Shown here: positions 7,325-53,436 of the stretch, piece by piece
Layout: each line of letters begins with the position of its first letter
Position numbering within the stretch: position 1 is the stretch's first letter
NCBI GenBank assembly: GCA_964613815.1
Contig: CAZTKG010000001.1
Span: 200,895-264,894, forward strand
Origin: an uncultured Gammaproteobacteria bacterium
GTDB taxonomy: Bacteria > Patescibacteriota > Patescibacteriia > UBA9934
DNA length: 64,000 nucleotides
Direction of reading: 5' to 3'
Program-made: the position numbers and the translations under genes
Notes under the pieces: generated by a model
Told to the model about the DNA's origin: nothing
The model's database searches: none
The model's input: the letters and a program-made list of their open reading frames with translations, nothing else

Positions 7325-7389
7325 GTTTGTCTTCTCCCACCTCGTCACTCACTCCCCCCATCTCGAGCGAAGTCGAAAGATCTTGCCCT

Positions 7390-8142
7390 CTATGCCGCGC
7401 CTTTTGCGAGTTTTTTCTTGAGTTCCGCGATCCTGTGCTGCGCGGAATCGATCTGTTCTCTTCGAATGTTTGCCGCATTTGACTGCCCCTCTCCTTGTTG
7501 TGTGAGTTTGTCTAGGGTCTGCTGCAATTGAGCTATTCGTGTTTCGTGCGCCAAAATTTCTTCGTTGACGTTCTCTGCAGACTCGTAGCCCGTTTCGTTT
7601 CGTACCACTGATCTACGTTCTGCCTGTCGCGACATGCCCCGAGCATGCACTCTGCGCTGAGCTGCGAGCAGTCCAACGATATGATCCCTGGTAAGCCCTG
7701 CCGCCACCAAAGCTTCCTGCTGCTGCCGTGTCGCACCCCCTTGTTCACTCATGAGGCCGTTTGCGAGTGCATAGTCCATCCACTGCCCCCAAGCCTCTCG
7801 GTCACGCTCTGCTTGGCGTTCCCGTGATGAAATTGGGCCTCGTTCTTGATCTCTTGCCACCTGTGCGTCCATTGCCTTCACGCGCGCCATGTATTCTTGC
7901 TGCGCTGCCGCCTGCTGATCTGGCGTCTGTGTCTCGCCGAGCGCCTCAAGCGCTTTGCCGCGGGCAGCCGCTGCCTGCGCTGTATCTGTCTCTGCGCTTT
8001 TGAACAGCGCGGACTTTAGCCTGGCCCACATTCCCTTCTCTTGCTTCGCATCGGCCGCAGCTGGCTTTGGCTGCTGTTCTTGCTTGCTTTCGAAGGCTTC
8101 TGGATTCACTGTTCCTGACTCTGGTTTCCCTGCCATACGCAT
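7390..8142 (-). CDS. Hypothetical Ala/Gln-rich coiled-coil protein
   Basis: 250-aa ORF, low complexity with heptad-like stretches, no recognisable domain. Its 3' end abuts a solo family-1 repeat arm. Confidence 0.45.
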   Translation of the reverse strand: MRMAGKPESGTVNPEAFESKQEQQPKPAAADAKQEKGMWARLKSALFKSAETDTAQAAAARGKALEALGETQTPDQQAAAQQEYMARVKAMDAQVARDQERGPISSRERQAERDREAWGQWMDYALANGLMSEQGGATRQQQEALVAAGLTRDHIVGLLAAQRRVHARGMSRQAERRSVVRNETGYESAENVNEEILAHETRIAQLQQTLDKLTQQGEGQSNAANIRREQIDSAQHRIAELKKKLAKGAA

Positions 8143-8150
8143 AAAATAGA

Positions 8151-9818
8151 TTATTTAGCTCCTGCGAGCTGCTTCTTTTTGGCGGTTGACCACGAGGAAG
8201 CATTAAGCTTTTTGCGAGTTAGTAGTTGAGAGAAGTGCTCTCCACTGAGCATATTTGGCACAATGACGAACATTGCCCCCATTTCGTACATCTTTGCCAC
8301 GTCTGATGTTTTCTTTACCGTCACCACCACCTTCACCTTTGATTTTCGTGACTTCTTGTAGCTTAGGATATCTTGATTGATCTGGATATCTGGGATTGTG
8401 GATACAATCAGCTTTGCTTTTCCTGCCTGAATGGAGTCTAGGAACTCTTCGTTTCCAACATCTCCGTAGACATTTGGAATGCCCTTTTCTGAGAGCTCTG
8501 CCTGGAGGACTGGGTTGAAGTCGGCGACTGTGTAATTCTTTGTCATCTTTTTGATGGCTGGGAGAAGGGTCTCGCCCATGCCCTGGTAGCCGAAGAGGAG
8601 GACTTCGCTTGCTGGGGACTTTCGCTTCCTCTTTTCGATCTTTCCGACGCCCATCCATGAGAAGAGAAATTCTAACTTATCGTAAAGGAGTTCGTTGTAG
8701 GAAATGAGATAGGTGGAGAGTGTGATGGTGATGATGGCGACTAAGGTTGCCATGCTGACGATAGCGGGAGCGACAAGACCAACGGAAACAGCTGCAGCGA
8801 GGATAATGAAGGAGAATTCGCTGATTTGGGCGAGTGTGACGCCGGTGAGGAACCCTGCTCTTGGGTGATAGCCGAAGGCGCGGAGGATAAGGAGGAGGAT
8901 GATTGGGTTTCCGATGAGAACGAAGAGGCTGAAGATGATGGACTCATCGATGAAGCCGGTGATGTCGGAGAATGTGAGCTGGGTGCCGAGAATGATGAAG
9001 AAAATGATGAGGAAGAAGTCTCTGAGCGGACGGACGCGGCTGTTGATTTCTGACTGGAAGCCTGTTGATGCGAGGGAGACCCCTGCGAGAAGCGCGCCGA
9101 TTTCGATCCCGAATCCGATGAGGTGGAGGACGCTTGCGAGGGCGAAGCACCAACTAATAGCGACGAGGAAGAGAAGTTCTTGGTTGCGCGCAGCGTAGCG
9201 CATGAGGTGTGGGAGGATCCACTTTGCCGCAAGGTAGAGGAGGAAGAGGACGGCCGCTCCCTTGAGGAGAACGAAGGTGATGGCTCCTGTTAATGATCCT
9301 GATTCTGCGCCGAGACTGCTAATGACGAGCAGCGTGATCATAGCGACAAGGTCCTGGATGAGGAGGATGCCGATGCTGATACGGCCGTAGAAACGGTCTA
9401 GGTCTTCTTTGTCTGACAGGAGCTTTACGATGACGATCGTGCTTGAGAGGGCGAAGGCGAGGCCGAGGAGGAGAGCTGTTTGGGCGTGGAAGCCTAAGAG
9501 AAGGGCGATGCCGAAGCCTGCTAGGGTGGTAAAGAGAACTTGGCCTAGGCCTCCTATTATAGCGATCTTTCCGACGTCTTTTGCTTGTTGCCAGTGCAGG
9601 TTGAGCCCGACCAGGAACAACAAGAAAGCGATGCCGATTTCGCTTAGGGACTCGAACATGTGAGCTGACCCCGCTTCTGCGAGGAGATTTGGCCCGATTA
9701 ACAGCCCTGTAAGGATGTATGCGATGATGAGTGGCTGCTTGAGCCTGTATACGAGAAGGGATACGACGCCAGCCGTTACGATGACTGCGCCCATCTCGAT
9801 AAATGCCATGTCGATCAT
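8151..9818 (-). CDS. Cation:proton antiporter (CPA2/Kef-type) with C-terminal RCK/TrkA-N domain
   Basis: About 12 TM helices typical of the Na+/H+ exchanger fold, followed by a Rossmann-like RCK segment (EVLLFGYQGMGETLLPAIKK...). Confidence 0.85.
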   Translation of the reverse strand: MIDMAFIEMGAVIVTAGVVSLLVYRLKQPLIIAYILTGLLIGPNLLAEAGSAHMFESLSEIGIAFLLFLVGLNLHWQQAKDVGKIAIIGGLGQVLFTTLAGFGIALLLGFHAQTALLLGLAFALSSTIVIVKLLSDKEDLDRFYGRISIGILLIQDLVAMITLLVISSLGAESGSLTGAITFVLLKGAAVLFLLYLAAKWILPHLMRYAARNQELLFLVAISWCFALASVLHLIGFGIEIGALLAGVSLASTGFQSEINSRVRPLRDFFLIIFFIILGTQLTFSDITGFIDESIIFSLFVLIGNPIILLLILRAFGYHPRAGFLTGVTLAQISEFSFIILAAAVSVGLVAPAIVSMATLVAIITITLSTYLISYNELLYDKLEFLFSWMGVGKIEKRKRKSPASEVLLFGYQGMGETLLPAIKKMTKNYTVADFNPVLQAELSEKGIPNVYGDVGNEEFLDSIQAGKAKLIVSTIPDIQINQDILSYKKSRKSKVKVVVTVKKTSDVAKMYEMGAMFVIVPNMLSGEHFSQLLTRKKLNASSWSTAKKKQLAGAK

Positions 9819-10138
9819 TTGTTCTTTTTTACAGTGTGTTCAATAACTCGTGCGAGGTGTTCTCCGTAGATAATCTCGGTCACAAGCCCTATGCCAATGA
9901 CGAAGTATGGAACAGCGGATAGCATGAAAAATGTGGATAACAAACGAGACCCTGACTGCGTGACAGCCAAGTCGCCATATCCGACGGTGGTGATAGTAGC
10001 TACCGTGTAGTACAGCGCGTCGATCGCGGTCCACCCCTCTAGGAACATAAACGCTGCGGTTCCTCCTAGAATCATGCAAATAAGCACGAGAATGAAAACG
10101 ATGAAGCGCGCGCTTGTGAGAAACTTCGGCGCGAGCAT
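9815..10138 (-). CDS. Two-TM potassium channel pore protein (TVGYGD selectivity filter)
   Basis: 107 aa: TM1, pore helix, selectivity filter TTVGYGD, TM2. Stop overlaps the start of the downstream CPA2/RCK gene (ATGA). Confidence 0.8.
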   Translation of the reverse strand: MLAPKFLTSARFIVFILVLICMILGGTAAFMFLEGWTAIDALYYTVATITTVGYGDLAVTQSGSRLLSTFFMLSAVPYFVIGIGLVTEIIYGEHLARVIEHTVKKNK

Positions 10139-52039: not shown

Positions 52040-52191
52040 AAAAACTTGCTACGATTTAGAATGGGATCTATATCGCATCAACTAAAAACACTCTGAAGTC
52101 GTGGCTTAGAGTGTTTTTCTCTGGCTAGGAGAGATGTGATAATTATAGTTTTTCATCCTGACCCTCGATCGTCAATGATGACTGTGGACAT

Positions 52192-53322
52192 TTAGCTTGC
52201 ATTTATTGTTTCTCTTAGCTCTTTCATCATTCGGAAGTAGAACCGGAGATTTTGCATCGTTGCGAGCCGAAGTGCGAGAAGTTCGTTTGTTTTGAATAGA
52301 TGACGTAGATAAGCCCTTGTATAGCTCGTGAGCTCTGGGATATCTTGATATTTATCGATTGGTGACTCGTCGAATTCGAATTGTTCGCGGGTGATGTGGA
52401 TCGCTTCGTATAGCGCGTCTTTAATGCGATCATCTGCTGCGCCTTCTTGTGCGCGTTTTAAGGCCTCGCGGACAGACTCTGCTGGGTCGCCTTTCCATGT
52501 GTAGAGTGTGCCGTGGCGAGCGTTTCGTGTTGGAAGGACGCAGTCGAACATGTCGACGCCGACGGAGACGTAGTAGACGATCTCCTCTGGCTTGCCGCCG
52601 CCCATGAAGTAGCGTGGTTGATTTTTTGGGAGGAGGCTGCAGACGTGTTTTGTGATGCGAAAGGCTGCTTCGCGTTTTTCGCCGACGGAGAGGCCGCCGA
52701 TGGCGTAGCCGTCGAAGCCGATGTCGATCAGGCCTTTTGCGGACTTCTCTCGTAAGTCTTCATGTGTACCGCCCTGGATGATGCCAAAGAGTTTTTGGTC
52801 TTTGTTGTAGGAGTCCTTGCAACGTTTTGCCCACTTGAGGGAGAGCTCCATCGCTTCTTGATAGCGTTCTCGTGATGAGTCCCCTGCCGCGACGTCGTCG
52901 AATTGCATAATGATGTCGGCGCCGATTGCAGCCTGCATGGCCATTGATCCTTCTGGGGTGATGCGGATTTTGCGACCGTCGATGTCGGACTGAAAGGAGA
53001 CACCGTCGTCGTCTGTTTTGTTCATTTTGGATAAACTGAAGACTTGGTAGCCGCCGCTATCAGTCAGCATCGGTCCGTCCCATCGCATGAACTTGTGGAG
53101 GCCGCCGAGCTTTTCCATGCCTTCGAGACCTGGACGGAGCATGAGGTGATAGGTGTTTGAGAGGACGATTTGGGCGCCGAGCGCTTTGACATCTTCTGAT
53201 GTGAGGGTTTTGACAGCGGCTTTTGTGGCGATTGGCATGAAGAACGGGGTCTTGATGTTGCCGTGTGCGGTTCTGAGCTCGCCGGCTCGCGCTGTTTGGT
53301 TTTCTGCGTCTAGGATGAACAT
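52192..53322 (-). CDS. tgt: Queuine tRNA-ribosyltransferase (tRNA-guanine transglycosylase)
   Basis: [38 protein letters not shown]... plus zinc site (CxCxxC...H). Start set to ATG 53322; the ORF-track extension to 53451 runs through repeat copy I. Confidence 0.9.
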
Positions 53323-53350
53323 ATGTGTGTATTGTATCACTTTACTGCTC

Positions 53351-53436
53351 CTCCCATCTCGACCTCGTGGAGAGATCTCTCGGGAGCCCTCGACCCTGCT
53401 CGGGACGGCGCGTACAGCGCCGGCTCGAGATGGGAA
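53351..53436. repeat. Family-1 palindromic repeat, copy I
   Basis: tcccatctcgacctcgtggagagatctc, about 42-nt loop, ggctcgagatgggaagag; immediately upstream of tgt. Confidence 0.8.

Follow-up and report, generated by a model that had tools for sequence, protein, structure and literature searches.

Hairpin repeats flanking a GIY-YIG nuclease gene in an Uhrbacteria-like genome are probably variant Ssn-related motifs

The 64,000-nt stretch of contig CAZTKG010000001.1 analysed here (positions 200,895 to 264,894; hereafter the window) carries a family of short hairpin repeats, which we call arms, scattered between genes and mostly joined as inverted pairs, together with one gene for a small GIY-YIG nuclease that has arms on both sides. 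Our material consisted of the window and of short loci from other genomes. The nuclease gene, called ssn below, and the main-family arms are laid out as follows (ORF, open reading frame; ssDNA, single-stranded DNA; z, score of the predicted fold).

7357-7383, plus strand: solo arm CCCATCTCGAGCGAAGTCGAAAGATCT with one inner-motif mismatch, in the gap that separates the hrcA start (gene at 6590-7282) from the stop of ORF 7390-8142
10222-10296: inverted arm pair between an ion-channel gene (start 10138) and ORF 10352-10732; fold -25.3 kcal/mol, z -7.0
13931-14003: inverted arm pair with unlike inserts, CCTTGTG and GCGTAGCC; fold -17.5 kcal/mol, z -4.2
16924-17022: outward-facing (tail-to-tail) arm pair directly 3' of ssn, with a 38-nt spacer that is itself a hairpin
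16924-16958, minus strand: arm of that pair with the 16-nt insert CCGACCAAAGGGAGTG
16997-17022, plus strand: arm of that pair beginning 6 nt past the ssn stop codon
17028-17318, minus strand: ssn, coding with its stop codon for a 96-residue single-domain GIY-YIG nuclease homologous to SsnA; Pfam PF01541 only, E = 1e-13
17341-17409: inverted arm pair (17341-17366 plus, 17383-17409 minus), on the upstream side of ssn and 23 nt from its start codon; folds as ssDNA at -22.5 kcal/mol, z -6.5
32407-32518: inverted arm pair, its arms 58 nt apart, in the gap from secA (start 32353) to hpf (stop 32538); folds at -38 kcal/mol, z -9.5
36693-36775: inverted arm pair 18 nt 3' of the glyA stop; the left arm holds the 16-nt insert CCGAGCGAAGCGAGTG
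39989-40036: two overlapping arms that form a compact palindrome, with the permease and dnaB genes diverging on either side
53353-53434: inverted arm pair upstream of tgt
53373-53434, minus strand: right arm of the tgt-upstream pair, with a 43-nt insert in its own distal hairpin
28189-28214: degenerate short palindrome CCCACCTCGACCACGGTGGAGATGGG, of uncertain membership

The scattered palindromic family that a preliminary description of this DNA had proposed is real. An arm consists of CCCATCTCGA, a variable stem-loop and GAGAGATCT, spanning 25-61 nt, and the whole-arm pattern CCATCTCGA-N6-36-GAGAGATC matches the window exactly 15 times against 0 in 100 dinucleotide shuffles. Permitting one mismatch or a longer insert brings the count to 17 arms, and CCCATCTCGA by itself has 18 exact matches and 26 with at most one mismatch (shuffles 6.1 +/- 2.4, maximum 12). 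The 17 arms group into seven inward-facing inverted pairs, one outward-facing pair and one solo arm, and the spacer between paired arms ranges from overlap (39989-40036) to 58 nt (32407-32518). The arms at 13932 and 16998 are identical over 25 nt, and further identical pairs are formed by 17408 (minus) with 32408 (plus) and by 32517 (minus) with 40035 (minus). When eight arms of related types are added to the 17 (see below), density in the 64 kb is about one arm per 2.6 kb, where none is expected; the added arms too are intergenic.

Several details of the preliminary description needed adjustment. Seven of its copies are the inward-facing pairs, but the copy it placed at 16923-17021 consists of two outward-facing arms about a spacer of 38 nt, and its solo arm at 7366-7390 actually occupies 7357-7383. 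Its loops of 0 to about 45 nt do vary, over the wider range from overlap to 58 nt, and of three arms held to be identical over 25 nt, two are so, the third (10223) departing at its final base. The hairpin it noted at 28186-28220 does have the two terminal motifs (28189-28214), but these are mismatched and the inner motif is absent; it is either a collapsed remnant of the family or an unrelated hairpin, and its membership is uncertain. An isolated 10-mer at 9790-9799, inside or at the start of an ORF, was rejected as an arm. A CRISPR array had rightly been set aside, the copies being inverted and irregularly scattered over 46 kb with genes between them.

Every main-family copy is intergenic, as had been stated, once two over-extended gene starts are corrected. 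For the GIY-YIG gene the start codon is ATG 17318, and the call made from 17345 extends into an arm; the tgt call from GTG 53451 runs through a repeat element, and its Pfam TGT match starts at residue 54. The true tgt start is most likely ATG 53322, making the first 37-43 codons of the call a read-through artefact. The N-terminal stretches of both calls are thus repeat read-through, as the preliminary description held. Its treatment of the GIY-YIG call as an annotation artefact and nothing else does not stand, because the call contains a homologue of SsnA that has arms to either side and that we take as the cognate enzyme gene of the repeats.

Arms share a two-tier design, 5'-YCC-ATCTC-GA-(variable stem-loop)-GA-GAGAT-CT-3', in which a tandem G·A step and then a distal hairpin, whose length is free, sit on top of a basal stem of 5 bp (ATCTC/GAGAT), and two arms in opposite orientation make palindromes of 50-110 bp. 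Inserts in the window are mostly 7-8 nt and of two chief types, CCTTGTG-like and GCGWAGTC-like, with others of 16 nt (CCGAGCGAAGCGAGTG, CCGACCAAAGGGAGTG) or 43 nt; across relatives, inserts of 6 to >100 nt occur on a retained basal stem. Including related types, arms begin YCC-CAT or GTC-AT and finish ATC-T. The 5' tag YCC is present in all 16 scored window arms and in most arms of Anaerococcus and the candidate phyla radiation (CPR), whereas 121 of 126 arms from metagenomic relatives picked by protein similarity carry GT-C. The ATC that follows the stem is kept in 16 of 16 scored window arms, as is a C directly 3' of the palindrome.

Covariation places the conserved hairpin within the arm. 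Among 437 arms gathered by pattern with the two central stem positions left free, position 5 of CATNTCGA and position 5 of GAGANATC combine as C-G in 315, T-A in 105, G-C in 2 and a T-G wobble in 1, leaving 14 non-pairs. Related loci contain compensated basal stems (ATCCC/GGGAT, ATTCC/GGAAT, ATCCT/AGGAT and ATTGC/GCAAT), always closed by C-AT...AT-C. In Anaerococcus an arm of the C type may be paired with one of the T type, the two mismatching one another, and left and right arm types are unlike at 20 of 39 genes in relatives. Unlike partners and a covarying base pair inside the arm together indicate that the conserved unit is the hairpin within each arm and not an arm-to-arm helix, which replaces the arm pair assumed as the unit in the preliminary description. 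Additionally, the G·A/G·A step is present on one strand only, and each arm is therefore polar.

Some related arms (CATTCCCGCGAAAGCGGGAATC, locus L174) resemble the Neisseria repeat dRS3, and this likeness leads to the literature on Ssn nucleases. Chenal et al. (Nat Commun 2025; PMC11893778) describe N. meningitidis SsnA as a 94-residue single-domain GIY-YIG protein (CDD cd10448) that binds solely the ssDNA form of the hairpin repeat NTS (CGTCATTCCCGCGMAVGCGGGAATCYRG), on one strand alone, cuts a few nucleotides upstream of it, and is inactive on double-stranded DNA or RNA. Binding hinges on the C just 3' of the palindrome and cleavage on the three nucleotides 5' of it, while the NTS loop is dispensable (PMC11893778). 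The same study found Ssn-related motifs (SRMs) near 71% of Ssn homologues, and on both sides of 42%, and reported that the Ssn/NTS system reduces transformation by DNA bearing NTS (PMC11893778).

The window protein is a homologue of this enzyme. By tblastn, two N. gonorrhoeae chromosomes each contain one match to it, at 43% identity (E = 7e-18 and 2e-16). The gonococcal SsnA orthologue there, a 94-residue ORF with Y6, Y17 and E64, is set amid numerous dRS3 copies and 7 exact NTS motifs; it aligns with the window protein without gaps (43% identity), Y8, Y19 and E66 falling over those three residues. The published description of the enzyme (about 94 residues in a single domain, tblastn E < 1e-10 to SsnA, catalytic Y/Y/E) fits the window protein throughout. 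The two sequences compared are listed in PLSDB as plasmids (NZ_CP119142.1 and NZ_CP119140.1) and are mislabelled 2.17-Mb chromosomes. At the gonococcal locus (L184, 750-1400) inverted NTS pairs lie about 108 bp apart with a 252-bp period, on the same scale as the 50-110-bp pairs of the window.

An AF2 model of the window protein (pLDDT 91.6) shows a minimal GIY-YIG fold, nearest to UPF0213 BH0048, Slx1 and the UvrC N-terminal domain; the best PDB matches are 1zg2 by profile (E = 8.5e-9) and Slx1 by Foldseek, and NCBIfam holds no specific model for the protein. UPF0213/YhbQ-type and Slx1 nucleases thus share its minimal fold and are its best PDB matches, but they form a separate clade, which we take to be cd10456 in the CDD, against cd10448 for Ssn. 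We know of no repeat association for these nucleases, and Slx1 is specific for branched DNA structures and has Slx4 as its partner.

Six-frame hmmsearch finds one GIY-YIG family member in the window, so that one ssn gene stands against 17 + 8 arms. That gene is flanked on both sides, by the pair 23 nt before its ATG and by the arm 6 nt past its stop, which is followed by a second arm in the opposite orientation. The linkage recurs in relatives. Searching related genomes by arm pattern (one genome per species), as the preliminary description had suggested, revealed many copies in Anaerococcus species (~30% GC) and further copies in Ca. Uhrbacteria and other Patescibacteria metagenome-assembled genomes (MAGs). 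GIY-YIG homologues about 50% identical to the window protein occur in Ca. Uhrbacteria UBA12070 (L043) and in Anaerococcus (L090, L098), each flanked by arms, and other homologues at about 50% identity have flanking motifs that fit the published SRM pattern (L113, L114, L119, L174).

We also examined 80 metagenomic loci chosen by protein similarity alone, with a generic hairpin detector for arms. A forward hairpin arm lies within 150 bp upstream of the gene in 52 of the 80 (65%), a reverse arm lies downstream in 45 of 77 (58%), and arms stand on both sides in 36 of 77 (47%); the same detector finds hairpins in 7% of distal windows and 2.8% of shuffles. The usual order is an arm, 3-20 nt, the gene from ATG to stop, 0-17 nt and a reverse arm. 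The inner 9-mer occurs within 300 bp of the gene at 31 of the 80 loci, and arrays of alternating arms also stand beside the enzyme gene (L147, L179). A replicon has one or few copies of the gene itself (36 places among 32 replicons).

The protein family comprises 9,459 clusters (50% identity) at E <= 1e-10. Among its 150 best representatives the profile match starts 20-75 residues into many entries, and entries such as P0035-P0110 have N- or C-terminal extensions of 20-75 residues, for example ...ICHPE..., ...VIPAKAGIS... and ...ARNDE.... Those extensions that were examined resemble hairpin repeats in translation, and they amount to a systematic gene-calling artefact near ssn genes. A scan of viral contigs gave one isolated match in 2.9 million, with no ssn gene close by, and as far as that scan shows the family is not phage-borne.

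These gene-repeat associations independently reproduce those of Chenal et al. The window and the characterised systems have in common a single-domain GIY-YIG enzyme of about 95 residues whose gene has hairpin repeats on both sides; repeats that are intergenic, dispersed and oriented, often in arrays or set as inverted pairs; a C that directly follows the palindrome; and a loop or distal part free to vary and lengthen. Taking together the repeat family and its statistics, the covariation within the hairpin, the linkage here and in about 80 relatives, and the homology to SsnA, we conclude that the elements are in all likelihood SRMs, that is, hairpin repeats recognised by the Ssn-family GIY-YIG nuclease encoded at 17028-17318, a gene itself bracketed by the repeats. 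Among the earlier suggestions, short REP-like (repetitive extragenic palindromic) intergenic elements are thereby supported, and the elements are very probably protein-recognition sites. The Ssn/SRM system itself was published in 2025; new here are the host lineages (Uhrbacteria-like and Anaerococcus), the variant motif and its invisibility to the published search pattern.

The pair described here differs from the characterised ones in its hosts, an Uhrbacteria-like genome and Anaerococcus, in its YCC tag in place of the GTC of the published motif, and in its stem, which is split by the tandem G·A and carries a second variable stem-loop (often GCGNAGC-like), where the published stems are continuous (ATTCCCGC/GCGGGAAT). 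Neisseria dRS3 elements and Neisseria intergenic mosaic elements (NIMEs) resemble the arms in being high-copy palindromes of 20-30 bp around short variable segments, clustered at particular genes, and dRS3 is unlike the arms in sequence (ATTCCC-N8-GGGAAT). In Neisseria, dRS3 copies are also integration sites for filamentous prophages, through an IS110-type enzyme.

Four observations weigh against identifying the arms as SRMs. The published SRM pattern, HGTCWYN(0-2)YYVSBRHN(0-5)WNVSBRGN(0-2)RNCYNB, has 0 matches in the window and matches near the gene in only 4 of the 80 related loci; the NTS control passes and the window arm types tested all fail. The two-tier stem with its G·A interruption causes these misses, joined in the window by the YCC tag, and the pattern is a search tool and not a functional definition. 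Second, the triplet 5' of the palindrome is YCC and not GTC, and since in Neisseria this triplet governs cleavage, cleavage here could differ or be absent. Third, basal-stem type is tied only weakly to protein similarity (56.3% versus 54.4% identity, p about 0.0005), which, with the unlike arm types at 20 of 39 genes, sits uneasily with strictly sequence-specific recognition; we rejected co-evolution of basal-stem type with the protein, a difference of about 2 points in identity being too slight for cognate specificity at those base pairs. Finally, single arms fold weakly by nearest-neighbour rules (-3 to -4.4 kcal/mol, z about -1.5) and arm-to-arm pairing dominates the predicted folds of the window copies, so that any structure assigned to the arms in vivo is tentative.

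Of the alternatives, structured RNA elements (small RNAs, terminators or mRNA stabilisers) whose link to the GIY-YIG gene is incidental fare best, and even these we consider unlikely. Eight of the nine loci do sit 5-56 nt 3' of a stop codon, and the hairpins are strong: folding the individual copies, a check proposed in the preliminary description, gave -17 to -38 kcal/mol for full elements as ssDNA (z -3.1 to -9.5). In Anaerococcus jeddahensis (L037, 1300-2200) tandem units of about 250 bp each hold one inverted arm pair with a TATAAT-like sequence before it and a T-rich stretch after it. However, Rfam (15) has no match to the elements at gathering or E-value threshold: at gathering score the sole match in the window is a tRNA-Glu, and E-value scans of the elements, the Anaerococcus arrays and six ssn loci gave only sub-threshold noise of generic miRNA-like hairpins. 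The window copies lack a U-tract on the transcribed strand, and because arms stand in both orientations with the G·A step on one strand, an RNA would hold one 'good' and one 'bad' arm. The characterised Neisseria enzyme binds no RNA (PMC11893778), which further disfavours the transcribed hairpin RNAs suggested earlier. The elements may nevertheless have a secondary terminator or stabiliser effect, as is known for REPs.

Also quite unlikely is a homing-type reading, with the GIY-YIG gene as a selfish gene inserting into palindromes that were there before it, which would make the repeats its landing pads and not substrates of a host function. GIY-YIG homing endonucleases are well known (PMC1564403), and homing into an element's loop would give rise to an arm-gene-arm layout beside arm-loop-arm elements. 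The window gene does not lie within a simple pair, though: the arms upstream of it form one pair and those downstream another, set tail to tail. Each replicon has one or few copies of the gene but many repeats, a DNA-binding extension of the I-TevI kind is missing from the protein, and the Neisseria enzyme leaves duplex DNA uncut (PMC11893778).

The arms do turn over. The window is syntenic with Ca. Uhrbacteria UBA12070 (glyA, permease and dnaB at 56-77% amino-acid identity), and the permease-dnaB spacer holds an arm in both (L006), whereas the UBA12070 locus has no arm downstream of glyA, unlike the window at 36693-36775. The 32407-32518 sequence recurs in four metagenome assemblies, all 100% identical to the window at the secA locus, which left no variation to read between strains. 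Orthologous spacers of Anaerococcus species differ by single arms, pairs or clusters. In several comparisons (L054/L088, L067/L085, L009/L085, L016/L074) compact pairs, made of a C-type arm, a 4-nt loop and a T-type arm, lie between two copies of a host terminator-like hairpin (for example aggctaaaaatttagcct, present twice), and the orthologous empty site has one hairpin copy. This suggests insertion at terminator hairpins, or duplication of those hairpins. Such pairs of empty and filled sites come from Anaerococcus only, and their edges are AT-rich and ragged, yielding no exact target or cut site. Together, these comparisons are consistent with ongoing gain and loss of arms. A 3.8-kb contig labelled 'Rikenellaceae bacterium UBA9571' (L071, DOSU01000156.1) is near-identical to UBA12070 (L070/L006), arms included, and is probably mis-binned.

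Presence/absence differences of this kind at orthologous intergenic regions would also be expected of classical MITEs (miniature transposable elements with inverted repeats), deletion derivatives of DDE-type insertion sequences (IS) that are mobilised in trans through their terminal inverted repeats and leave target-site duplications. The elements resemble bacterial MITEs such as Correia elements and Nezha in size, dispersal, terminal inverted repeats and intergenic position, and their copies are near-identical. Yet direct repeats flank no window copy (none of at least 6 nt abuts any of the 9 window elements), which disfavours the MITE-like character offered in the preliminary description. Among the scanned ORFs beside the elements we saw no transposase with matching ends, DDE or other, and no IS was found. 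Additionally, single arms look functional in their own right, exist alone and turn over independently, the conserved feature is an intra-arm hairpin with compensatory changes, and the sole consistently linked protein is the 96-residue GIY-YIG nuclease. We therefore regard a MITE origin as highly improbable.

Least probable of all are REPs, bacterial interspersed mosaic elements (BIMEs) or REPINs (REP doublets forming hairpins) served by a REP-associated tyrosine transposase (RAYT; IS200/IS605-type, HUH) encoded at another place in the genome: such systems are organised in the same way (hairpins of alternating orientation, inverted pairs, tandem arrays by the enzyme gene at L147 and L179, and a single-copy, repeat-flanked enzyme gene), but the flanked gene encodes a GIY-YIG and not an HUH protein, a Y1_Tnp domain (PF01797) was not seen among the 30 window ORFs scanned, and the arms have YCC/GTC...ATC instead of the GTAG or CGTC tag typical of REPs (PMC3733652), GTAG being confined to some loops (GCGTAGTC).

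The likeness of REP/RAYT systems to the Ssn/SRM system lies in hairpin units acting as ssDNA substrates, alternating orientation, doublets and a single-copy enzyme gene amid its own repeats; the chemistry is different, HUH tyrosine transesterification there and GIY-YIG hydrolytic nicking here, and so is the tag sequence. We dropped as new an interim idea that this is an undescribed GIY-YIG analogue of REPIN-RAYT, because the 2025 paper already raises the analogy: Chenal et al. themselves compare the system with IS200/IS605 and REP-BIME elements (PMC11893778).

For the window pair as an Ssn/SRM system, we infer by analogy with SsnA that the protein would bind and cut ssDNA specifically. When DNA becomes single-stranded during uptake, replication or repair, the strand with a forward arm would fold; the nuclease would bind the hairpin base, with the C right after the palindrome critical, and would nick a few nucleotides 5' of the arm or tag. 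Duplex DNA and RNA would be expected not to be acted on. An inward-facing pair presents one forward arm per strand, and cuts would be predicted on both outer flanks of the element. Limiting or shaping the recombination of incoming ssDNA is a speculative role in the Uhrbacteria-like cell. Equally speculative is multiplication of the repeats by a REP/RAYT-like, nuclease-dependent process with host repair. A nuclease alone cannot rejoin DNA, and any copying of repeats must therefore use host repair or recombination.

Exact arm inserts are common to the window and Anaerococcus (CCTTGTG, CCTTGCG, CCGAAGTG and the 16-nt CCGACCAAAGGGAGTG within a 34-nt arm), and none is common to the window and the other Uhrbacteria/Patescibacteria MAG loci. 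The Ssn proteins of the window and of Anaerococcus are about 50% identical despite the shared exact arms. The shared inserts could be due to cross-phylum transfer or to strong constraint on the distal hairpin. We tentatively raise, as a possibility more doubtful than not, that YCC-tagged, G·A-interrupted arms and their Ssn homologue make up, within the Ssn/SRM system, a specificity class of their own that continues to move; the gain and loss of arms and pairs between Anaerococcus species and the duplicated terminator hairpins around inserted pairs point that way. If this were so, repeats would multiply in a REPIN/RAYT-like but GIY-YIG-dependent manner, through ssDNA nicks and host repair, the system would have been exchanged between an Uhrbacteria-like CPR bacterium and Anaerococcus (Bacillota), and incoming single-stranded DNA would be policed in CPR cells, which rely on DNA uptake.

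To our knowledge, Ssn enzymes are the first site-specific nucleases that cut single-stranded DNA only, and every pairing of enzyme and motif could supply a tool with a new specificity. The pair here is a candidate Ssn specificity that departs from the characterised ones at the cleavage-controlling positions (YCC for GTC) and has a modular, two-tier hairpin. With it, the range of the system takes in an Uhrbacteria-like bacterium of small genome as well as the human-associated genus Anaerococcus. Surveys by the published SRM pattern undercount the system, finding 0 of the 17 arms here and missing 76 of the 80 related loci. For annotation, the repeats account for spurious N-terminal extensions and junk ORFs, with peptides such as SRLRSRWE.

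The window also contains arms of related types. A second subfamily has the same design with the stem ATCCT/AGGAT (CCATCCT-GA-stem-loop-GA-AGGATC), and other arms, which include GTCATCCTGAGCGCAGCGAAGGATC and GTCATTGCGAGCGCAGCGCGGCAATC, carry the GTC tag.

12262-12407: second-subfamily arm pair (12262-12331 plus, 12368-12407 minus) adjoining tRNA-Glu
27098-27137, minus strand: second-subfamily solo arm
35244-35347: second-subfamily tail-to-tail pair (35244-35282 minus, 35308-35347 plus) upstream of glyA
10171-10194, plus strand: GTC-tagged arm GTCATTGCGAGCGCAGCGCGGCAATC
10747-10858: GTC-tagged pair, GTCATCCAGAGCGAAGCGTGGGATCC ... reverse complement of GTCATCCTGAGCGCAGCGAAGGATCC

Six-frame hmmsearch of the window found no second ssn gene to go with the second subfamily or the GTC-tagged arms. 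A 126-residue ORF at 10352-10732 (minus strand), with no Pfam match, is bracketed by three arm types (10171-10194, 10222-10296 and 10747-10858).

Two repeats in the window are unrelated to the arms: a 35-nt inverted repeat, GTGAAAGGGGTCAGGTCGTGTATCGTGACATTTTT, at 13675-13804, with copies 89% complementary and 60 nt apart, and a 45-nt tandem duplicate, AGGCATCGCGGACTGAACTCAAGGCAGAGG..., at 51866-51951. Among the other genes, ORF 19251-21302 encodes a TrwB/TraG-like type IV coupling protein, and ORF 23846-26089 encodes a SecD with an inserted PPIC-type peptidyl-prolyl isomerase domain.

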